Assembly (NCBI GenBank): GCA_964291495.2
Contig: OZ219872.1
Span: 512,001 to 576,000 of the forward strand
Source: Dehalococcoidia bacterium
GTDB lineage: Bacteria > Chloroflexota > Dehalococcoidia > UBA2979
Reading direction: 5' to 3'
DNA length: 64,000 nucleotides
The position numbers and the translations under genes are program-made. This document shows, one piece after another, positions 11,284-50,525 of the stretch (position 1 is its first letter; the number at the start of each line of letters is the position of its first letter). Below the pieces are notes generated by a model. The model worked only from the letters and a program-made list of their open reading frames with translations. It made no database searches and was not told the origin of the DNA.

Positions 11284-12135
11284 TCATGCCGGGCCGGCCA
11301 GCCGGCGCAGCACCTCGTCGTGCAGGCGTCCGTTCGAGGCGACGCGCGCTCCGGCGCCCTCCGACGGGCCGCCCTCGGCGTCGGTGATGCGGCCGCCCGC
11401 CTCCTCGACGATCGGGATCAGCGCCGCGACGTCCCACGGGTGCAGGTCGACGCCGTCGAGCATCACGTCGGCGGCGCCCTCGGCGACGAGGCAGAAGCCC
11501 CAGAAGTCGCCGAGCCCGCGCACGCGCCAGGCCTCGCCGAGCAGCGCCCGCGCCCCCGGCCAGCGCTCGAGGGTGGCGAGCGTCTCGCCGTAGACCAGCT
11601 GCGCCTCGGCGATCGTTTCGGCCTCGGAGACGCGGATGCGCTCGCCCGCGCCGCGCGCGCCCGTCGCGCCCCGGTAGGCGCCGAGCCCGCTGCCCGCCCA
11701 CCAGCGCGTCCCGAGCGCGGGCGCGGAGACGACGCCGACCTCGATGCTGCCGCCGCGCTCGCAGGCGATCAGCGTCCCCCAGACGGGGATGCCACGCATG
11801 TAGTTGTGGGTCCCGTCGATCGGGTCGAGGATCCAGCGCGCCTCGGCGTCCTCGGCTGCCTCTCCGCCCTGCTCCTCGCCGAGGACGGCGTGTGCCGGGT
11901 AGCGCTCGGCGATCCGATCGCGCAGCAGCGCCTCGATCTCGCGGTCGGCGGGCGTCACGTACGTCCCGTCCGCCTTGCGCTCGATGGCGTGCTCGCCTCG
12001 ATAGTCCCGCATCGCGATCGCGTCGGCGGCGTCCGCCAGCTCGAGGCCGAAGGCGAGGATGTCGGCTGTGGGATCAGTGGAGATAGCGGTCAGCCTTCCA
12101 ACAGCGTGAAGTGCGGCTTCTTCCCTCGACCCCAC
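11284..12135 (-). CDS. hisN: Histidinol-phosphatase, inositol monophosphatase family (start uncertain, may be near 12093)
   Basis: VTPADREIE, LGEE, WILDPIDGT and WDVAA motifs; last gene of the his cluster. Confidence 0.85.
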   Translation of the reverse strand: MGSREEAALHAVGRLTAISTDPTADILAFGLELADAADAIAMRDYRGEHAIERKADGTYVTPADREIEALLRDRIAERYPAHAVLGEEQGGEAAEDAEARWILDPIDGTHNYMRGIPVWGTLIACERGGSIEVGVVSAPALGTRWWAGSGLGAYRGATGARGAGERIRVSEAETIAEAQLVYGETLATLERWPGARALLGEAWRVRGLGDFWGFCLVAEGAADVMLDGVDLHPWDVAALIPIVEEAGGRITDAEGGPSEGAGARVASNGRLHDEVLRRLAGPA

Positions 12136-12875
12136 GCGGATTCAACAAACGCTCGGCAGCGCTCACCGAGCCGCTCAGCATGTTCAGGAGCGGGCACCAC
12201 CAAGTAAGTGCGCGATGTGCCACGGTGGTACCGCAGGGCCATCACGTTCTGGCGTCGCGACAGCCGGAAGTGCCGACGCAGGGCCTCCATACGATTCTCG
12301 ACTTGGATCTCCACCGTCTGTCCCTTAACGCTTCGAGAGGAGTGGTGGTACACGATGATGCTCCGTCCCGCTTCCCAATGTGGTTGGAGATCGTGGTAGT
12401 AGGCGTACTTCCTGCCGTCATTGTTGCCGCTCCCACCCACGGCCACGGGCCCGACGCTTGGGATCTCAAGACCCGTGTTGGGATCAGCGAAGACGACCTG
12501 GGCGTCGGTCACTCTCTCGAAGCCATCGGCGAGCCACTTACTCCGCTTCTGCTCCCTCTCTCCCCATGGATCGTTCGGCGTTATGTCTAATTCTTGAGAG
12601 AAACACACGGTTCCATACGGCAGGGCGTCGCTCGCCTCTACTGCCGCAATGGTCCGCTTGCCTTGCACGATCGCCCGCATCGCTCGAAAGAGTTGTGGGT
12701 TGCAGCGCTCGAAGTCATCGCTGCGTGGCGGCTGAAGGTAGTCGACATCGTTACCGCCATCGCACGACTCAAACCGGTACCACAGCACGCCAAGGCGGAG
12801 GTCGTCGCCGCACAGAGCGCGGAGCAACCCATACTTGCCGAAGTCGCCGACATCTCCGGCGTAGCAGTCCTGCAT
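12090..12875 (-). CDS. Hypothetical protein, possible SAM-dependent methyltransferase-like fold
   Basis: Starts MQDCYAGDVGDFGKYGLLRAL with ATG overlapping the methylase stop (TGATG). Contains VVFADPNTG and is visibly less GC-rich. Confidence 0.7.
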   Translation of the reverse strand: MQDCYAGDVGDFGKYGLLRALCGDDLRLGVLWYRFESCDGGNDVDYLQPPRSDDFERCNPQLFRAMRAIVQGKRTIAAVEASDALPYGTVCFSQELDITPNDPWGEREQKRSKWLADGFERVTDAQVVFADPNTGLEIPSVGPVAVGGSGNNDGRKYAYYHDLQPHWEAGRSIIVYHHSSRSVKGQTVEIQVENRMEALRRHFRLSRRQNVMALRYHRGTSRTYLVVPAPEHAERLGERCRAFVESAWGRGKKPHFTLLEG

Positions 12876-13747
12876 CAGCCCGTGACCCCCTCCGCGAAGA
12901 CGACGCCGTCGCAGGCGGCGAAGCGGCGGCGCATCACCTCGAACGCCTCCGGCGAGCTGTCGGCGAGGACGAAGCGGCGGCCGTGGCGCAGCGCCGCCTC
13001 GCCCGTCGTGCCGCTGCCCGCGACGAAGTCGCAGACCAGGCCGCCTGGCGGCGAGGAGGCGCGCACGATCCGCTCGAGCACGCCGATCGGCTTCTGCGTC
13101 GGGTAGCCCAGCTTCTCCTTGCCCGTCGGGCTCACGATCGTGTGCCACCAGGTGTCGGTCGGCAGCTTGCCGCGCGCCGCCTTCTCCGGGCCCACGAGGC
13201 CGGGCGCCATATAGGGGATGCGCTCGATGTCCTCGACGTTGAAGAGATTGCGGGAGGCGTCCTTCGCGTAGAAGAGGATGTTGTCGTGCTTCGCCGGCCA
13301 GCGCCGCTTCGGCCGCGCGCCGTAGTCGTAGGCCCAGATGATCTCGTTGACGAAGTTGACACGACCGAAGATCCGGTCCGCCAGCACCTTCGCGTAGTGC
13401 ACCTCGCGGTAGTCGAGGTGCAGGTAGAGGCTGCCCGAAGGCGCCAGCACCCGCTGCGCCTCGACGAGGAACGGCTCGAGGAAGCCGAGGTAGTCGTCGC
13501 GGGCGTCCTCGAAGGAGCGGCTGCCCAGCCGCGCGGTCTCGTAGCGCCGCCCGCCGAAGCCGCTGCGGTCGCCCTCACCGTCCTCGACACGGCGCGTGCG
13601 CAGCTGCTCGCGCGTCTGCCGCCTGCCGGTGTTGAACGGCGGGTCGAGGTAGACGAGGTCGACGCTCTCGTCCTCGAGGGTGCGCGCGACCGCCACGCCG
13701 TCGGCACAGTGCACGACGCCGCGCGGCGCGGCAGGATTGCTGCTCAC
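12875..13747 (-). CDS. Site-specific DNA methyltransferase (N6-A/N4-C, beta class)
   Basis: Catalytic YLDPPF precedes YPTQKP and the SAM-binding DFVAGSGTT. Confidence 0.92.
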   Translation of the reverse strand: MSSNPAAPRGVVHCADGVAVARTLEDESVDLVYLDPPFNTGRRQTREQLRTRRVEDGEGDRSGFGGRRYETARLGSRSFEDARDDYLGFLEPFLVEAQRVLAPSGSLYLHLDYREVHYAKVLADRIFGRVNFVNEIIWAYDYGARPKRRWPAKHDNILFYAKDASRNLFNVEDIERIPYMAPGLVGPEKAARGKLPTDTWWHTIVSPTGKEKLGYPTQKPIGVLERIVRASSPPGGLVCDFVAGSGTTGEAALRHGRRFVLADSSPEAFEVMRRRFAACDGVVFAEGVTG

Positions 13748-13754
13748 GGCGCCG

Positions 13755-14513
13755 TCACGCCGTCAGCGTGCCCTTGGTGCTCGGCACCTCGCCGGCGATG
13801 CGCGGATCGCGGCGGGTGGCGGCATCGAGGGCGCGCCCGAGCGCCTTGAAGGCGGCCTCGGCGATGTGGTGGTCGTTCGCCCCGGCGAGCTGGCGCACGT
13901 GCAGCGCGCAGCGCGCGCCCTGCGAGAACGACTGCAGGGCGTGGCCGATCATCTCCGTCGGCGCCTGGCCGATTCGCTCGCCGCCCCAGTCGAAATCGAT
14001 CGCGGCGTAGGGGCGGCCGGAGCAGTCGATCACCGCCTGCACCAGCGCCTCGTCGAGCGGAACCGTCGCGTCGCCCATGCGCACGAGGCCCGAGCGGTCG
14101 CCCAGCGCCTCGTCGACGGCGGCGCCGAGCGCGAGCGCGCAGTCCTCCATCGTGTGGTGCTCGTCGACGTGCAGGTCGCCCTCGCAGCGCAGCTCGAGGT
14201 CGAAGCGTCCGTGCTTGGCGAACGCCTCGAGGACGTGGTCGTAGAAGCCCACGCCGGTCGCGATCCCGGCGCGGCCGGTCCCGTCGATGTCGATCTCGAC
14301 GTGGATGCGCGTCTCCGCGGTGATGCGGTCGACGACGGCGCGGCGCTCGCCATCCTCGAGGTCGCGCTTGACGCGCTTGAGGTTGGTGTTGATCGCCTGG
14401 CGGGTCACGCCGAGCTCCTCGGCGAGCCGGGTCTGGCCGCCGAGCACGTCGAGCTCGCCCGCCTCGAAGGCCTCGCGTACGCGCAGATAGGTCTCGCTCT
14501 TGATCTCGACCAT
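13755..14513 (-). CDS. hisB: Imidazoleglycerol-phosphate dehydratase with N-terminal HTH extension
   Basis: DEHHTMED, NDHHIAEAAFKA and PSTKG motifs; extra ~55 aa includes QTRLAEELGVTRQAINTNLKRV. Confidence 0.95.
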   Translation of the reverse strand: MVEIKSETYLRVREAFEAGELDVLGGQTRLAEELGVTRQAINTNLKRVKRDLEDGERRAVVDRITAETRIHVEIDIDGTGRAGIATGVGFYDHVLEAFAKHGRFDLELRCEGDLHVDEHHTMEDCALALGAAVDEALGDRSGLVRMGDATVPLDEALVQAVIDCSGRPYAAIDFDWGGERIGQAPTEMIGHALQSFSQGARCALHVRQLAGANDHHIAEAAFKALGRALDAATRRDPRIAGEVPSTKGTLTA

Positions 14514-14591
14514 TGGGCTGCCCTTCCGGTTCGCCCGATCAGCGTATGGCCTGCGTCAAATTGTGTCTACTCTTAGGTGTGATTGGCAGAT

Positions 14592-14614
14592 TGACGTACT
14601 ATTACTCTACGTCA
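14592..14614. promoter_or_regulatory. Palindrome TGACGTA-N9-TACGTCA, candidate operator upstream of hisB
   Basis: Perfect 7-bp inverted repeat inside an AT-rich ~140-bp intergenic region. Confidence 0.5.
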
Positions 14615-14655
14615 GCAGTGAACGGGTGACTCAGTCGCCGGCGGCGGAGGTTCGT

Positions 14656-14856
14656 CTAGGCGGTTTCGAATTGCAGGGCCGAGAGGTTGACATCAGATGA
14701 ACGCTCAGAGAGGCGCAGCATCTCGACGCCGACGACTTCGTTCGCCTCGTTGTAGTCGAGCACGACGCCCGGCGAGACTTCCTCGGACTCGACGATGGCC
14801 GAGTCGTCGAGGCGGAGGTAGAGAGCATCGGCCTCTTTGTCCACGCGCAGCTTCAC
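14656..14856 (-). CDS. DUF2283-like putative antitoxin
   Basis: MKLRVDKEADALYLRL...VVLDYNEANEVVGVEML; GTG overlaps the upstream stop. Confidence 0.85.
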   Translation of the reverse strand: MKLRVDKEADALYLRLDDSAIVESEEVSPGVVLDYNEANEVVGVEMLRLSERSSDVNLSALQFETA

Positions 14857-15104
14857 AGTTGGCCCCTCATGGCTCGATCGAAGAATACGCTCACGACCCG
14901 CCACGGCACAACGCGAGTATTGACCGCCACGCGCAGCACCCGGTCGTCGCGCTCTGGTATACCCGCGAAGAAGCGCTCCACTTCAGGGTCATGCGCGTCG
15001 TGCGTTCTCAACTCTGGCGCCGCCACGACGCGCTCGGCCCACTCGATAGGAATCCTCCGCTCCGCCAGGGCGTCCAGCGCGTGCCGTGTGAACGACAGTC
15101 TCAT
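14853..15104 (-). CDS. DUF4258-like (RelE/BrnT-fold) putative toxin
   Basis: MRLSFTRHALDALAERRI...RVLRVAVN...VVSVFFDR; paired with the DUF2283-like gene. Confidence 0.8.
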   Translation of the reverse strand: MRLSFTRHALDALAERRIPIEWAERVVAAPELRTHDAHDPEVERFFAGIPERDDRVLRVAVNTRVVPWRVVSVFFDRAMRGQL

Positions 15105-15123
15105 GACGCCTGCGGCTGCACGT

Positions 15124-16290
15124 TCACCGCGCCCCGCCCTCCACCTCCCGGCGCGCCTCGGACAGGGCCGCGAGCAGGCGCTCGCTGTCCTCGGAAGTGC
15201 CGGCGGAGATGCGGACGTGGTCGCGCAGGCGCTCGTGGCCGAAGAAGCGCACGAAGACGCCGCGCCGCGCCAGCGCCTCGCGCAGCGCCGCGCCGCTGCC
15301 AAAGGCGAGGCGACAGAGCAGGAAGTTGGCCTGCGAGGGCACAGGCTCCAGCCAGCCGCCCGCGCGCAGCTCGGCCGCCAACCGGTCGCGCTCGCCGGCG
15401 ATCTCGCAGGCGCGCTCGTCGAGCAGCAGCGCATCCTCGAGCGAGGCGAGCGCGGCCGCCTCGGCGGCGGTGCTGACGCCGTAGGGCTGCTTGCACTGCA
15501 TCAGCAGCGAGGCGACCGGGGCCGGCATCACGCCGTAGCCGACGCGCAGCCCGGCGAGACCGGCCCACTTGCTGAACGTGCGCAGCACGATCAGCGGCGC
15601 CTCGCCAGGTCTGCCGTCCTCGGCGGCGCGGTCCGCGAGGCTTGGCGATCCGCTGTGCCCGCCCTCGCGCCCGCTCGCGAACTCCACGTAGGCCTCGTCG
15701 ATCACGACGATCGCGCCGCTTGTGCGCAGGCGCTCGGCGGCGCCGGGCGGCAGCAGCCCGCCCGTCGGGTTGTTGGGCGAGGGCAGGAAGACCGCCTTCG
15801 CGCCCTCGCAGGCCGCGGCGAGGCCATCGAGGTCCACCGACCAGTCGTCGCGCCTGGGCACGTCGACGAGCTCCGCGCCGGCGATCTCCGCGCCGAAGGG
15901 ATACATCCCGAAGGTCGGCGAGGCGATCACGACGCGGTCGCCAGCCTCGACGAAGATGCGGAAGACGAGGTCGATGATCTCGTCGGCGCCGGCGCCGGCG
16001 ACGATGCACTCCGGCGACACGCCGTGCCGCGCGCCGAGGGCGTCGCGCAGCCTTCGCTGCTCCGGGTCCGGGTAGCGGTGCGCCGCGTAGCCCCCGGCCA
16101 GCGCCTCGAGGGCGTGTGGCGAGGGGCCGTAGGGGTTCTCGTTGCCGTCGAGCTTGACGATCGCCTCGGGCGCGACGCCGTAGCGGGCGGCGACCTGCTC
16201 CGGCGGGTCGATCGGCTCGTAGCCGCGCAGCGAGCGCAGTGGCGGGCGCAGCGCGCCCTCGAGGTCGAAGCTCGCGGAGTCCGTCATCAC
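15124..16290 (-). CDS. hisC: Histidinol-phosphate aminotransferase
   Basis: KLDGNENP, SPNNPTG, DEAY and RTFSKWAGLAGLRVGY motifs. Confidence 0.96.
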   Translation of the reverse strand: MMTDSASFDLEGALRPPLRSLRGYEPIDPPEQVAARYGVAPEAIVKLDGNENPYGPSPHALEALAGGYAAHRYPDPEQRRLRDALGARHGVSPECIVAGAGADEIIDLVFRIFVEAGDRVVIASPTFGMYPFGAEIAGAELVDVPRRDDWSVDLDGLAAACEGAKAVFLPSPNNPTGGLLPPGAAERLRTSGAIVVIDEAYVEFASGREGGHSGSPSLADRAAEDGRPGEAPLIVLRTFSKWAGLAGLRVGYGVMPAPVASLLMQCKQPYGVSTAAEAAALASLEDALLLDERACEIAGERDRLAAELRAGGWLEPVPSQANFLLCRLAFGSGAALREALARRGVFVRFFGHERLRDHVRISAGTSEDSERLLAALSEARREVEGGAR

Positions 16291-17642
16291 AGTCCCTCCA
16301 GCCTGCGCTCGATCGAGCGCGCGTGGCCGGTCAGCCCCTCGGCGCGGGCGAGCCGCGCGGCGTGCGGCCCGAGCTCGCCGAGGGCGCCCTCCGGCAGCGC
16401 GATCACGGAACTGACCTTGAGGAAGTCGAGCACGGAGAGCGGAGAGGCGTAGCGCGCCGACCCGCCCGTCGGCATGACGTGGCTCGGCCCCGCGACGTAG
16501 TCGCCGAGCACCTCGGGCGAGTGATCGCCGACGAAGACGCCGCCCGCTGCGGTGATCAGCGGCGCGATCGCCTCCGGCTCGCGCGTCAGCAGGCAGAGGT
16601 GCTCCGGCGCGAACTCGTTGGCGAGCGCCACCGCCTCCTCGACGCCGTCCGCGACGACCGCGCCTCCGCCCTCGACGGCCGCGCGCGCGATCGCGCCCCG
16701 CTCGAGGTCCTCGAGCTGCCGCTCGACCTCGGCCTGCACCGCCTCGGCGTGCGCGCGCGAGGTGGTGATCAGCACCGGCCTTGCGAGCGTGTCGTGCTCG
16801 GCCTGCGCCAGCAGGTCGGCGGCGCAGAGGTCGGGCGCGGCCTCCTCGTCGGCGAGCACGAGCGTCTCCGTGGGCCCGTAGATCGCATCGATGCCGACCT
16901 CGCCGAAGAGCTGCTGCTTGGCGAGCGTCACGAAGACGTTGCCCGGGCCGAAGATCTTGTCGACGCGCGGGACCGTCTCCGTGCCCAGCGCCAGCGCCGC
17001 GATCGCCTGCGCGCCCGAGGCGCGGAAGACGCGCCGCACCCCGGCCAACTCGGCCGCCACCAGCTTCAGTGGGTGCACGCTGCCGTCCTCGCGCGCTGCC
17101 GTCAGGCCGATCCGCTCCGGCACGCCCGCGACGAGTCCGGGCAGCGCCGTGTGCAGCACCGAGGAGGGCAGCACCGCCACGCTGCCGGTCATGTAGATGC
17201 CGGCCCGCGCGATCGGCTGCACCGTCATGCCCACGCCGTCCTCGAGGAAGGAGCGCGGGCCGTGCGCGAGCTGGCGCTCGTGGTAGTGGCGCACGCGATC
17301 GGCGGCGAAGCGCAGCGAGTCAAGCAGCTCGCCCGGCGTCTCCGCGAACGCGGCCTCGATCTCCTCGCGCGTCACCTCGAGCGGTGCGTCCGCGGATCCG
17401 TCGAAGCGCTGCGAGAAGGCGCGCACCGCCGCGTCGCCCTCCTCGCGCACGCGGGCGATGATCCGCGCCACTACCTCGGAGGCGCTCAGGTCCGCGCCGA
17501 AGGTCTCGCGGATCGAGGCGCGCACGGGCGGCGGCAGCGCGGGGTCGCCGAGCGGGTCGCGCCGCAGCACGCTCGCACGGGCGGCCTCGGCGCCCTGGAC
17601 GATGCGCAGTGCGGGTCCGGATGCGGGCGTGGTGGCAGCCAT
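16287..17642 (-). CDS. hisD: Histidinol dehydrogenase
   Basis: GPGNVFV, DLLAQAEHD, APEHL and GDYVAGPSHVMPT motifs; ATG 17642 overlaps the upstream stop. Confidence 0.96.
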   Translation of the reverse strand: MAATTPASGPALRIVQGAEAARASVLRRDPLGDPALPPPVRASIRETFGADLSASEVVARIIARVREEGDAAVRAFSQRFDGSADAPLEVTREEIEAAFAETPGELLDSLRFAADRVRHYHERQLAHGPRSFLEDGVGMTVQPIARAGIYMTGSVAVLPSSVLHTALPGLVAGVPERIGLTAAREDGSVHPLKLVAAELAGVRRVFRASGAQAIAALALGTETVPRVDKIFGPGNVFVTLAKQQLFGEVGIDAIYGPTETLVLADEEAAPDLCAADLLAQAEHDTLARPVLITTSRAHAEAVQAEVERQLEDLERGAIARAAVEGGGAVVADGVEEAVALANEFAPEHLCLLTREPEAIAPLITAAGGVFVGDHSPEVLGDYVAGPSHVMPTGGSARYASPLSVLDFLKVSSVIALPEGALGELGPHAARLARAEGLTGHARSIERRLEGL

Positions 17643-18397
17643 CAGAGTCTCGGCAGGTACTCGCGGAGGCGCTCGGCGGCCAGCTCGGTCGCCTCCTCGA
17701 GGTAGCGCGCGACCTCCTGCTCGGTGACGTGTGAGAGCGACTCCTGGATCAGCCCGCCCGGGTTCTGCGCGACCTCCTCGACCTCCTCCTCGCTGAAGCC
17801 GCCGCGCCGCAGGTGAATCTGCATCACCCGCGGGAAGCGCTCCCAGTCCGGGCGCTGGTAGGTGATCCCGCGCGTGAAGTCGCGCCACTCCGGCCACAGC
17901 CGCGACTCGATGAACCCGACGGCGATCGCCGCCTCGGTCGCGTCGATGGCGGTGCGGATCTCGGTGAGGGCGGCGTCGTCCTCCAGCTCGCGGCGGTTCA
18001 TCTCGTACTGCAGGGCGCGATCCAGCACGTTCGCGCGCAGGTCGCCGCCGAGGGACGAGCGCTCGCCGAAGAAGCGGCGGTAGACGCTCTGGATGTAGTG
18101 CTCGTCCATCAGCAGGTGCGTCACGTAGCCCGCCACGAACGCCCTCGTGCTCTCGTTGAGGCCGGCGACGTCCCGCAGGTCCGGGTGCTCCTCGAACATG
18201 CGCGCCACCGAGTCCTGCTGCTCGAAGTCGTCGAGCTCGAAGAAGTGCGTGAGGCGGCGGTCGACGCGCAGCAGCACGCGGATGTCCGGCGCCGTCGATC
18301 CCATGTAGTAGGACCCGCGATCGGCGTCGATGTACGGGTGGCCGAGGCGGTCGGCCAGCCCGTAGGCGCTGGCGAGGTGTGATCCCAGTGAGGGCAC
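17642..18397 (-). CDS. Zinc-dependent phospholipase C/S1-P1-fold family protein
   Basis: MPSLGSH...GSTAPD...THFF...GYVTHLLMD pattern. Confidence 0.75.
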   Translation of the reverse strand: MPSLGSHLASAYGLADRLGHPYIDADRGSYYMGSTAPDIRVLLRVDRRLTHFFELDDFEQQDSVARMFEEHPDLRDVAGLNESTRAFVAGYVTHLLMDEHYIQSVYRRFFGERSSLGGDLRANVLDRALQYEMNRRELEDDAALTEIRTAIDATEAAIAVGFIESRLWPEWRDFTRGITYQRPDWERFPRVMQIHLRRGGFSEEEVEEVAQNPGGLIQESLSHVTEQEVARYLEEATELAAERLREYLPRL

Positions 18398-18399
18398 GG

Positions 18400-19839
18400 T
18401 CAGACCTCCGCGGCTCCCGCCCGCAGCCGCTCGACCAGGTCGTCGCGCAGCTCGCCGCGCGCGCCGGGCGGACGCACCGTCGAGCCGATCGCGCAGTTCG
18501 TCGACTCCATGATGACGTCGATCATACGGAGCCGGTTGGCGCGCAGGGTGGAGCCCGTCTCCGTCCCCTCGATCAGGATCTCGGCGTCGTCCGGCACGAA
18601 GCCCTCGGACGCCCCGGAGATCGGCAGCACCTGGTAGCGCCCGAGGTGCCGCTCGCGTGCGTAGTGATCGGCCAGGGCGACGTACTCCGAGGCGACGCGA
18701 ATCGGCCGCTCCGGGTCGTCGCGCCGCCACCAGGCGATCGCCTCGGCGATCGTCTCGGCGGGCACGGCCTCGGGCACGACCGCGCCCAGGCGGTAGCGGC
18801 TGCGCCGCAGATCGCACAGCTCGGCCACCGGCGAGAGCGGGAATGCCGCGAGGTGCGCGGCGAGCCAGTCGCGCCCCGTCAGCGCAAGGTCGAAGCAGCC
18901 GAGCGCGACGGCCTGCGGCATGTCCTGCGGGCGGATCACCTTCACCTCGAGGCCCTCGATGCCGGAGCGCGGGTGGCGGTCCGTGGCGCCGTCGCCGTAG
19001 CCCTCGAAGCGCAGGCCGGCGGAGGCGAGCGCCTCGACAGTGTGCGGCTGCGCGTGCCCGTCCGGCAGCGCGAGGCGGAAGACGCCGCGATCGCCGTCCG
19101 AGCGCCGCGAGGCGATGCCGTCGAGGCCGCCGTTGCGGCCGTTGCCGCGGGGCAGCGGGCGCGCCTCGGCGGCGTCCCGGTCGCCGGCCGGCAGCGCGAG
19201 CAGCGGCCCCAGCGCCTCCGCGAGATCGCGGCTCGCGAGGGCGTCGCGGTTGGCGACGAGGGTTGCCGAGCCGCGTTGCACCTCGGCGACGACGGCCAGT
19301 CCCTCCCGGGCGAGAACGGCGTCGGCCCCAGCCTCGTCGAGCGGCACGCCGAGGATGGCGGCGTCGGCGTCCTCCGGCGGCCAGGCCTCGGGCTGGCCCC
19401 AGACCTCGATCACGCGGTAGTCCGGCACGCGAAGGTAGTTGAGCGCGCGCGTCGCCAGGTTCGGGTGCGTCGTCGTCACCCGCACGCCCGGCGTCGCGGC
19501 GAGGCGGTCGAGCGTGACGCCCTCGGGCGCTGCGAGCACCAGCCGCCGGCCGCCGAGGTCGAGCGGCCGCAGCGGCGTCAGCGAGTCGAGCGGGTAGCGC
19601 GCCAGCAGCTCGTCGACCCAGGCGCGGCTGGTGATGCCGAGGTCGTACTGGCCGAGCGCGACCTGGATCGGGATGTCCTCCTCGGCGAAGACGCGCACGA
19701 GCACGCCGGGCCGCCCCTCGACCGGGAAGCGGTACGCGCGCGATCCGCCCTCGTAGCCCTCGACGGCGAAGCCGGCCGCACGCAGGCGCTCGGCGAGCGG
19801 CGCGCGGAGGTCGCCGCGCGGGAGTGCGACGCGGATCAC
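18400..19839 (-). CDS. hisG: ATP phosphoribosyltransferase with two tandem short-form HisG domains
   Basis: Two copies of xALPxG...D(I/M)PxxVALGxxDLx(I/L)T; the second has IEGTETGSTLRANRL. GTG 19839 overlaps the hisZ stop. Confidence 0.92.
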   Translation of the reverse strand: MIRVALPRGDLRAPLAERLRAAGFAVEGYEGGSRAYRFPVEGRPGVLVRVFAEEDIPIQVALGQYDLGITSRAWVDELLARYPLDSLTPLRPLDLGGRRLVLAAPEGVTLDRLAATPGVRVTTTHPNLATRALNYLRVPDYRVIEVWGQPEAWPPEDADAAILGVPLDEAGADAVLAREGLAVVAEVQRGSATLVANRDALASRDLAEALGPLLALPAGDRDAAEARPLPRGNGRNGGLDGIASRRSDGDRGVFRLALPDGHAQPHTVEALASAGLRFEGYGDGATDRHPRSGIEGLEVKVIRPQDMPQAVALGCFDLALTGRDWLAAHLAAFPLSPVAELCDLRRSRYRLGAVVPEAVPAETIAEAIAWWRRDDPERPIRVASEYVALADHYARERHLGRYQVLPISGASEGFVPDDAEILIEGTETGSTLRANRLRMIDVIMESTNCAIGSTVRPPGARGELRDDLVERLRAGAAEV

Positions 19840-20864
19840 GACGCTGCCTCCGGCGCGAGCGCGGCAAGGCGCAGCAGGTCGGCGGCGAAGCCCGAGGCGG
19901 GCGCCGGGCGCCCCCCGATCGCCTCCGCCATGCCGTCGTAGCGCCCTCCGACAAGACAGGCCTCGCCGCCCGTGAAGGCGCGGAAGGTGAGGCCGGTGTA
20001 GTACTCGAAGCTGCCCCCGGCCGCGGGCGCGAGATCGCAGGCGACTCCCGCCGCCTCGAGCGTACGCATGGCCGCGCGCAGTTCCGCGATCGGCTGTGCG
20101 GCCTCCGGCAGCGCGGCCTCGACGTTGTCGAGGTAGCCCCCGCCCCCGCCGCGGATCTCCAGCAGCAGGCGCAGGCCGGTCGCCCGTTCCGGGCTCGCCG
20201 CCGCCGGCTCGCCGGCGACGGCCTCCACGGCGTCCGCGCCGCCCTCGATCACGCGGTCGAGCGCCTCGATCTGCCCGGCCGCGTCGAGGCCGGTCGCCGC
20301 CAGCGCGGCGCGCAGCAGGCCGGCGTGGGCGAGCTCGAAGCGCAGATCGCCGAGTCCGAGGGCGCTCAGCAGCTCGCGGGCGAGACCAAGCAGCTCGACG
20401 TCGCCCTCGGGAGCGGCGCGGCCGAACAGCTCGACGCCGCACTGCCACAGCTCGCGATCGCCGTCGCCGGCGTCGAAGCGGTAGACGGGCTGTACGTAGC
20501 TGAGCCGCGCGGCCTCGCCCTCGGAGGCGTCGGCCCGGCTCTCGAACCAGCGCACCGCGGGCAGCGTGCTGTCCGGGCGCAGCACCATCCGCTCGCCGCT
20601 CCACCCGTCCCAGTCGAGGAACGAGTAGACGCGGTCCAGCAGCTGCGGCGAGAGCGCACCGGCGCTGGTGAAGAGGTGCAACGGCTCCACGGTGGGCGTG
20701 CGGATCTCCTGGTACCCCGCCGCCGCCGTCACCTCGAGGAATCGCGCCTCGACGCGGCGGAAGCGCCGCATCTCGTCCGGTCCGATGTCGTGCATGCCGC
20801 GGCTGCGCAGGGCCTCGGTGCGGCTCGCGGCGGGGGTGCTTGTTTCGGTCTCGGATTCGCTCAC
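19836..20864 (-). CDS. hisZ: ATP phosphoribosyltransferase regulatory subunit
   Basis: RGMHD, IRTPTVE, LRPDST, QCGVEL, YYTG and GGRYD motifs; no anticodon domain; adjacent to hisG. Confidence 0.9.
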   Translation of the reverse strand: MSESETETSTPAASRTEALRSRGMHDIGPDEMRRFRRVEARFLEVTAAAGYQEIRTPTVEPLHLFTSAGALSPQLLDRVYSFLDWDGWSGERMVLRPDSTLPAVRWFESRADASEGEAARLSYVQPVYRFDAGDGDRELWQCGVELFGRAAPEGDVELLGLARELLSALGLGDLRFELAHAGLLRAALAATGLDAAGQIEALDRVIEGGADAVEAVAGEPAAASPERATGLRLLLEIRGGGGGYLDNVEAALPEAAQPIAELRAAMRTLEAAGVACDLAPAAGGSFEYYTGLTFRAFTGGEACLVGGRYDGMAEAIGGRPAPASGFAADLLRLAALAPEAAS

Positions 20865-50370: not shown

Positions 50371-50525
50371 CGCAGCCGAACCTCGTTCGCGGATGGACGG
50401 GGGCGGGGGAACCACCGCAATGGGGTGAATCCGGCGGCGGCGAGGCCCGGAGCGGTCTTGGACGCCCTCGGTAGGCGACCCGAGCGCCGAACCCGTCAGC
50501 TAACCCCGCAGGCGTACTTGGGGCG
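50371..50525 (+). ncRNA. c-di-AMP riboswitch (ydaO/yuaA class)
   Basis: GCCGAA...GGGGGAACC...TGGGGTGAATCC...GGTAGG...CCGAACCCGTCAGCTAACCCCGCAGGCG matches the recalled consensus; located in a 5' UTR. Confidence 0.88.

Follow-up and report, generated by a model that had tools for sequence, protein, structure and literature searches.

What is a DNA-binding-type domain doing at the front of a histidine biosynthetic enzyme? This question is raised by the hisB gene of an uncultured Dehalococcoidia bacterium (Chloroflexota, UBA2979; assembly GCA_964291495.2, contig OZ219872.1, positions 512,001-576,000 of the forward strand), which we analyzed within a window of 64,000 nt to which all coordinates below refer. 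The assembly comprises 3.08 Mb in 8 contigs and is 93.7% complete. On the reverse strand of the window, the open reading frame (ORF) for imidazoleglycerol-phosphate dehydratase (IGPD, the hisB product) is preceded in frame by a short helix-turn-helix (HTH) segment. Comparison with related genomes indicates that this HTH-IGPD fusion can be put down neither to faulty annotation nor to chance, and the DNA ahead of it suggests a regulatory role confined to this locus.

The ORF comprises 252 open codons counted from an ATG at 14513-14511, and an in-frame stop codon lies 14 codons further upstream. Its match to the Pfam family PF00475 (199 bits against a gathering cut-off of 27, E 5e-59) covers residues 86-229, and the NCBIfam HisB model NF002111 scores 238.4 against a cut-off of 231. 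In the alignment with a solved IGPD structure (6fwh), residues 3-196 of the latter pair with residues 56-250 of the ORF (E 1.8e-64). About 55 residues thus precede the canonical start of the enzyme, and the NCBIfam HisB models likewise align from residue 56-57. The original prediction, made from the letters of the window, had described such an extension, in frame and preceded by the ribosome-binding site (RBS) GGAAGGG; both statements are borne out.

Judged from its sequence, the enzyme domain seems to be catalytically intact. It keeps both (D/N)xHHxxE motifs, as DEHHTME at residues 117-123 (14145-14165) and as NDHHIAE at residues 213-219 (13857-13877); according to PMC7284861, two such motifs, one in each half-domain, make up the metal sites of IGPD. 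A genome-wide search with PF00475 returned this gene as the single IGPD copy. Being the sole IGPD of the cell, the fused protein presumably must function as an enzyme. Dehydratase activity and assembly into the Mn-dependent 24-mer are thus presumed, from the single-copy status and from a ratio of nonsynonymous to synonymous polymorphism (pN/pS) of 0.21.

The true start of the gene does not appear to lie downstream of the HTH, an eventuality that the original prediction had itself raised. At codon 56, the counterpart of the ancestral hisB start, the present genome reads GAG, and no start exists there; the only other in-frame starts, GTG codons 23 and 36, both fall within the HTH. Hence, IGPD can be produced here only together with the HTH, whole or in part. 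Among the ten genomes that carry the fusion (see below), the start is the ATG of codon 1 in six and the GTG of codon 2 in four, with an RBS in all ten, and none has a stop codon between the HTH and the IGPD domains. The identity of codon 56 varies within this group: GTG preceded by GAGGAC in five genomes, GAG in two, the present one included, and GCx in three.

Full-length matches to the fusion (from residue 1 or 2 to 252, 90-97% identity) were found in 10 of 41 related genomes, all belonging to the genus of the window. In the 8 other congeners with a hisB match, and in all other genera, the match begins only at residue ~44-61. Non-fusion hisB starts with M-[ST]-E-R-R-A right after hisC, leaving little or no gap. 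When residues 1-56 were searched separately in the 19 genomes of the genus, the same ten responded, once each and always at hisB, while nothing was detected in the remaining nine at E values up to 0.01. In a maximum-likelihood tree built from IGPD domains (23 rows; G024, with N in its sequence, was excluded), the ten fusion rows fell into one group (support 87/91), so that one change suffices to explain their distribution. The fusion is thus found in 10 of the 19 species genomes of one genus, as one clade, and we consider it recent and clade-restricted on the evidence of this comparison.

Selection has acted on the added segment as well as on the enzyme. Pooled over 45 genome pairs, pN/pS is 0.082 for HTH codons 2-50 (pS 0.20) versus 0.209 for the IGPD part (pS 0.18). 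Across the ten genomes, 22 of the HTH codons 3-50 are invariant, 19 show synonymous variation only and 7 change the amino acid; the recognition helix is identical in all ten. The G+C content at third codon positions (GC3) of the HTH, 0.95, is similar to that of hisC, of the IGPD part and of the methyltransferase gene that follows hisB. The extension is thus conserved, another point on which the original prediction had been made to depend, and the comparison points to a single in-frame product with both domains under purifying selection. In public records the protein falls into two clusters at 90% identity, one of 7 members and one of 76, which include two NCBI entries from Chloroflexota metagenome-assembled genomes; since these entries are named plainly HisB, the HTH feature goes unremarked in their names. 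A separate public protein, P0020 (199 aa, from an ENA contig of 1471 nt), has an N-terminal part of the non-fusion type (MSERRATVTRDTAET...) and a C-terminal half matching the fusion-clade cluster; judging from its sequence, recombination or a chimeric assembly may have produced it.

The string that the original prediction had singled out as a typical HTH pattern is located at residues 27-48, where many HTH families match, and the fold proposed there was recovered by structure prediction. AlphaFold2, run on residues 1-56 with 16 aligned sequences, yields three helices (7-17, 26-34 and 38-53) with a mean predicted local distance difference test score (pLDDT) of 92.2 and a predicted template-modelling score of 0.77. 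Top rows of a Foldseek search with this model are the KorA-operator complex (probability 0.99, template-modelling score (TM) 0.66), ArdK bound to direct-repeat DNA (TM 0.69, root-mean-square deviation 1.8 Å over 52 columns) and homeodomains. The leading VIA-align matches are sigma-factor region 4 and KorA (Z 6.0-6.6) along with AsnC/Lrp, DeoR and LuxR-type domains; among the best 50 of 80 rows (Z 5.3-6.6), nearly all are HTH DNA-binding domains or close structural kin. A family profile matched the Pfl6 Cro protein 2pij (E 1.9e-4) and, weakly, the KorA/ArdK group (E 0.017-0.04, with KorA at 0.017). Two relatives rise barely above a Pfam cut-off, each in a different family: P0007 in YdaS_toxin (30.2 against 30) and P0014 in HTH_10 (25.0 against 23.1). 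The Xre-type family HTH_3 gave no match to the window sequence at E values up to 0.1. As modelled, the domain is a DNA-binding-type tri-helical HTH resembling KorA, sigma region 4 and homeodomains: the scores are modest and the neighbours almost uniformly DNA-binding.

The domain also exists outside hisB. A HMMER search of 1.84 billion representatives produced 9 matches at E values of 0.001 or less, consisting of the fusion itself, four stand-alone proteins of 58-87 aa and others that we rejected as family members, these being repeat-rich or merely locally similar. A profile search added two further close family members and one more distant Cro-like protein. In the alignment, the stand-alone relatives span the entire domain and end within 1-2 residues of the fusion junction, as expected if a small gene had lost its stop codon and run into hisB. 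One relative (P0014) is encoded by a viral contig of IMG/VR, with genes that match ParB-like and DNA-ligase PHROG families nearby, and its stop codon overlaps the ATG of the next gene. Judged by sequence, this family of stand-alone 58-87-aa proteins is very rare and of mobile-element or phage type.

Other searches for relatives gave little. A word-index search with the single HTH sequence revealed no stand-alone homologues of 30-98 aa; a viral-contig scan with P0007 found no match; tblastn returned nothing better than E 0.3 from phage records and no match from plasmids. Six loci came out of a metagenome-contig scan, all of them generic HTHs (the one inspected, L043, lies inside a 409-aa protein with a generic winged-HTH-like match), and an unfused HTH gene followed by hisB was not found in that scan. 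We also set aside 14 other matches in a 401-genome sample of the phylum, which are partial (E 4e-5 to 1e-3, in frames of 120-1273 aa) and reflect generic HTH similarity, as well as a 20-residue, chance-like match (L028) from a genome-contig scan with the single protein. The second-best match in the genome of the window (L002) is a generic winged HTH and was set aside; a GTCAAC repeat near it lies within a coding frame and is thus a coincidence. At the viral locus of P0014 (L041, 4940-5240, forward strand), where the stop/start overlap is ATGA, CGTCAAT and GTAGAA occur no more than 60 nt upstream of the start; they recall the candidate half-sites described next, and the likeness may be due to chance.

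In the fusion clade, hisC and the HTH are separated by ~120 bp of non-coding DNA, and the HTH itself adds 165 bp. When 144 nt from upstream of the start codon were aligned across the ten genomes, a few conserved blocks (identity 0.67-0.80) stood out from sequence that is mostly unalignable (0.33-0.39). These blocks read GTCAAy-N4-CGTCAAy, GTAGACA-N4-TTGAC, TAnnnT and the RBS. The simplest reading of their order is a promoter with three GTCAA candidate half-sites (Table 1). The spacer between the predicted -35 and -10 elements measures 17-18 nt across the ten genomes. Half-site 3, within this spacer, forms an inverted repeat with the sequence at 14591-14596. The distance between sites 1 and 2 is 10 bp in all ten genomes and that between sites 2 and 3 is 36 bp in nine, with an identity of 0.33 in the intervening DNA. 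Fixed spacing across unconserved DNA, together with a conserved pentamer inside a promoter spacer, is the trace that a bound protein would be expected to leave. With a conserved promoter and three candidate half-sites directly upstream of the gene, a DNA-binding role for the HTH is plausible.

The exact sequence GTAGACA-N4-TTGAC occurs once in this genome and once in each of six other fusion genomes, always at the same locus; at that locus in other fusion genomes it carries one mismatch in two cases and two mismatches in one. It is absent in exact form from the five non-fusion congeners searched, and one-mismatch matches elsewhere are no commoner than those of a reversed control. Since the motif is found only at this locus, whatever control it marks should be local to hisB and the genes that follow. 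On this count the original prediction of a second control layer for the his operon was overstated. Its idea of a trigger enzyme survives in part: an HTH fused to the enzyme, conserved, and sharing one polypeptide with the active-site motifs is what we find, and the motif search gave no sign of wider control of the operon.

Fusion, selection, HTH fold and promoter architecture, as read from sequence comparison and structure prediction, lead us to infer DNA binding, repression and a scaffolding role for the IGPD part. On balance, though with limited confidence, we lean towards a locally autoregulating enzyme-repressor in which IGPD serves as the oligomerization module. An HTH gene of mobile-element type, bringing its own promoter, would have entered the hisC-hisB interval in an ancestor common to the subclade and then lost its stop codon, reading through into hisB at the old start position. 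The product would combine a tri-helical HTH, a variable linker and a complete IGPD in one polypeptide. Its HTH would bind the three GTCAA candidate half-sites, two of them direct repeats near -60/-70 and one inverted in the -35/-10 spacer, and would thereby repress hisB and the tightly packed downstream genes (methyltransferase, 260-aa ORF and hisN), amounting to negative autoregulation. Because the HTH has no dimerization module of its own, the IGPD oligomer would be the source of the multivalency needed to hold the spaced half-sites.

A more elaborate version can be envisaged. IGPD forms a 24-mer of ~110 Å whose N-terminal sheet lies on the outer surface (PMC10978614), and plant and fungal IGPDs without Mn2+ are trimers (PMC10978614, PMC7284861). 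By our own arithmetic, 36 bp of B-form DNA are about as long as the IGPD particle is wide. Possibly, only the assembled, Mn-loaded 24-mer, with its N-termini outside, would present the HTHs in a way that clamps three half-sites 10 and 36 bp apart, so that transcription of hisB and the genes behind it would report on enzyme level, manganese supply or substrate occupancy. We regard this assembly-gated version as quite unlikely.

Several observations weigh against autoregulation by the fused HTH. Since -35 and -10 elements are conserved in any promoter, what points to a bound protein is only the TTGAC of the spacer and the upstream GTCAA repeats, candidate sites that a different regulator could occupy. 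The present genome has a degenerate site 1 (GTAAT), and two of the ten genomes have an altered site 3. A simple sigma-70 promoter and terminator scan of 13500-15300 reported nothing. The HTH is net acidic (9 K+R against 12 D+E). A dozen Pfam HTH families match residues 20-54 of the window sequence, every one of them below its cut-off (YdaS_toxin comes first, with 28.5 bits against 30; the others include Cro, P22_Cro, KORA, HTH_10, HTH_11 and Sigma70_r4_2). Foldseek gave no match to the HTH model at an E value of 0.001 or less, the best being 0.24; VIA-align listed 80 chains at Z of 5 or above and none at 8 or above, a range often seen with small helical domains. The model of the whole protein, though its top Foldseek matches are all IGPD, is poor (pLDDT 59.1, with the C-terminal half of IGPD below 50) and is therefore silent on how the domains pack. 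Finally, five of the ten clade genomes could, from their sequence, make plain IGPD beside the fusion by using the internal GTG, and a public gene call of 197 aa (P0026) begins at that codon.

This last point bears on the idea that the enzyme comes mostly from an internal start, the fused form being a minor or non-functional by-product. The GTG at codon 56, placed after GAGGAC in half of the clade and adopted by the public call, speaks for it; but this codon is GAG or GCx in the present genome and four others, where the remaining starts are within the HTH or at codon 1 or 2, and across the clade the HTH frame is uninterrupted by a stop and kept under purifying selection. The idea is thus highly improbable. 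We attach equally little weight to the view that the GTCAA...TTGAC inverted repeat acts as a hairpin in an RNA leader rather than as a DNA operator. Its arms can pair as 5 bp in eight of the ten genomes; in the other two, however, the pair is broken. The loop exceeds 30 nt, and the consensus fold (-3.63 kcal/mol) comes with a positive covariation term and no compensatory change in the stem. Moreover, both arms lie upstream of the predicted -10 element, and no Rfam family was found near the locus.

More substance attaches to the possibility that the HTH is a domesticated relic. The insertion would have supplied hisB with a promoter, an RBS and a start codon, and the HTH would persist as a folded, non-binding N-terminal tag helpful for translation initiation, solubility or assembly; the conserved upstream blocks would then be nothing but a promoter with sites for host factors. 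Parted from hisC by the insertion, and in five of ten genomes also by cassettes, hisB needed a new promoter and start in any case, and the acidic charge of the HTH, its failure to pass any Pfam cut-off and the lack of a second motif copy in the genome all fit this account. A mere leader, however, would not be expected to hold a pN/pS of 0.08, lower than that of the enzyme domain, nor to keep its recognition helix invariant in all ten genomes, and the account leaves unexplained the spacer TTGAC and the GTCAA repeats at fixed distances of 10 and 36 bp in unalignable DNA. It appears unlikely to us. Restriction-modification controller proteins, which are small autoregulating HTH proteins encoded first in their operon, suggest yet another role: the HTH might, as an autoregulator, time or limit the expression of the methyltransferase and the 260-aa ORF, HisB being a passenger in the transcript. 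A Type II methyltransferase gene does start 8 nt after hisB and is followed by a 260-aa ORF of foreign composition. But the same pair is present in seven of eight non-fusion congeners that have no HTH anywhere, so that it is older than the HTH and functions in its absence, and the HTH is a three-helix domain of KorA/sigma-region-4 type lacking an HTH_3 match. By both tokens, it does not look like a controller protein, and we hold such a role to be very unlikely. Local autoregulation by the HTH-IGPD fusion remains the reading that we favour.

Table 1. Features of the hisB locus and its surroundings (window coordinates)
Feature	Position	Strand	Evidence and remarks
HTH-IGPD (HisB) fusion ORF	13755..14513	-	252 aa plus stop; 90-97% identical full-length matches in 9 other congeneric genomes
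Predicted N-terminal tri-helical HTH, residues 1-56	14346..14513	-	Helices 7-17, 26-34, 38-53; recognition helix TRQAINTNLKRVKRDL
Variable inter-domain linker, residues 51-60	14334..14363	-	Codon 56 GAG at 14346-14348; 8 of 10 codons change amino acid
IGPD domain, residues 57-252	13758..14345	-	PF00475 E 5e-59; 6fwh alignment; both metal motifs; single copy
Shine-Dalgarno-like GGAAGGG	14521..14527	-	7 nt ahead of ATG; purine-rich counterpart in 10/10 fusion genomes
Predicted -10 element TACGCT (TAnnnT)	14541..14546	-	Positions 1, 2 and 6 invariant in 10/10; ends 27-30 nt before start codon
Predicted -35 element TAGACA	14564..14569	-	AGACA invariant; TAGACA 9/10, TGGACA 1/10; 17 nt to -10
Candidate half-site 1, GTAAT	14601..14605	-	GTCAA in 7/10 genomes; 10 bp upstream of site 2
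Candidate half-site 2, CGTCAA	14591..14596	-	Invariant in 10/10; 36 bp upstream of site 3
Candidate half-site 3, TTGAC(G)	14554..14559	-	Within promoter spacer; orientation opposite to that of sites 1 and 2; TT.AC invariant, TTGAC 8/10
Type II N6/N4 DNA methyltransferase	12875..13747	-	PF01555 E 6.8e-42; PADLOC MTase_II 8.7e-129; 8 nt past hisB stop
260-aa protein, no family match	12090..12872	-	After methyltransferase; GC3 0.72; 37-86% identity among congeners
DUF4258/DUF2283 toxin-antitoxin-like pair	14656..15161	-	Pfam; between hisC and HTH promoter; GC3 0.75-0.76 (foreign)

The genes that flank the fusion have a history of their own. The methyltransferase gene, probably co-transcribed with hisB, and the 260-aa ORF sit between hisB and an IMPase-type hisN. 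The latter ORF gave no Pfam, NCBIfam, PADLOC or PDB match; it is possible that it encodes a restriction partner of the methyltransferase. All ten fusion loci have the methyltransferase and nine have the 260-aa ORF within the DNA covered; seven of eight non-fusion congeners have both, the eighth retaining a methyltransferase remnant, and none of six loci from other genera has the pair. Its occurrence in non-fusion congeners places it before the arrival of the HTH, of which it was thus not the original partner. Across species, the methyltransferase is 85-95% identical (GC3 0.96), and the 260-aa ORF looks as if it had been repeatedly exchanged.

On the other side of the fusion, the interval from hisC to the HTH promoter seems to be a hot spot for cassettes of DUF4258 type (in the window; at L006, 2411-3144 on the reverse strand; and at L007, L009 and L013). 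Among the ten fusion loci, three, including the present one, have the full pair, one has DUF2283 alone, one a different cassette and five none. The different cassette, in genome G009, pairs another DUF4258 toxin with a partner of 152 aa that contains internal repeats. A joint arrival of the HTH and such a toxin-antitoxin cassette was considered and dropped, as the GC3 of the HTH is 0.95 versus 0.75-0.76 for the pair and five of the ten fusion genomes are free of cassettes.

Three further observations concern other parts of the window. Two separate HisG (PF01634) stretches fall within one long open frame on the reverse strand (18400-20604). ATP-phosphoribosyltransferase may be encoded there in tandem or in duplicate, or the high GC content may have let two neighbouring genes appear as a single frame. 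Between hisG and hisD, an ORF at 17642-18700 (reverse strand) shows a weak match to Zn-dependent phospholipase C (21.4 bits against a cut-off of 26.8). The sole Rfam match within the window is a c-di-AMP riboswitch at 50374-50522 on the forward strand (RF00379; 61.9 bits, gathering score 38).

How does the HTH-IGPD protein compare with known systems? On the side of the enzyme, the nearest parallel is the bifunctional HisB, also an N-terminal IGPD fusion and evidence that IGPD can accommodate an extra domain at this end (PMC7284861, PMC10978614). The domain added there, however, is the histidinol-phosphatase, a HAD phosphatase and itself a pathway enzyme, whereas here it is of DNA-binding type. 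In the excerpts available from PMC10978614, PMC7284861 and PMC9413887, the hisB fusions named are with the phosphatase only, and a full-text literature search, which would miss sequences held in supplementary alignments, found no HTH-IGPD protein. Comparative sequence data thus suggest a new domain architecture for hisB, one that is real and selected, and narrow in its distribution.

On the side of the HTH, the best Foldseek neighbours are mobile-element repressors, KorA (TrfB) of IncP plasmids and ArdK of R388 (probability 0.95-0.99, TM 0.63-0.69; VIA Z 6.0-6.1). Sequence identity to them is 21-25%, with no significant score, and the match to the KORA family (PF16509; 16.1 bits against 26.7, E 0.013) leaves the protein outside it, the likeness being limited to the HTH part. 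KorA has a C-terminal dimerization domain; here, IGPD follows residue 56 instead. The best sequence matches are to phage HTHs of Cro/YdaS type (PF15943, PF09048, PF14549), which are likewise small and of mobile-element origin; but their alignment is limited to an HTH core of ~27 residues, and the predicted long third helix and the structural neighbours fit sigma region 4 and KorA better. The locus offers a tractable case for asking if a repressor can do without a dimerization domain of its own when it is joined to a large homo-oligomeric enzyme. Should DNA binding depend on IGPD assembly, enzyme level or manganese would be sensed in an unusual manner, and if the assembly-gated version were true, a cage-forming metabolic enzyme would be a multivalent transcription factor recently born from a phage-type HTH gene.

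As a combination of the two, the protein resembles the group II biotin ligase BirA, NadR, PutA and the archaeal RbkR, in which an N-terminal HTH-type domain and a working biosynthetic enzyme, of the metabolism of amino acids or cofactors, likewise share one polypeptide (PMC5397151); with RbkR, as here, the cell has no copy of the enzyme besides the chimera (PMC5397151, PMC4016012). It differs from these trigger enzymes in that its HTH is minimal (56 aa) and of mobile-element type, and in that its candidate site lies at its own promoter only, with no sign of a regulon. Furthermore, such enzyme-regulator fusions are few and mostly ancient, while HTH-HisB, restricted to ten of the 19 species in a single genus, appears young. 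Because of this youth, the steps of its making are still readable in living relatives: the coupling of hisC to hisB in congeners, the HTH family whose members end at the junction, and the old start codon that survives as GTG in half of the fusion genomes.

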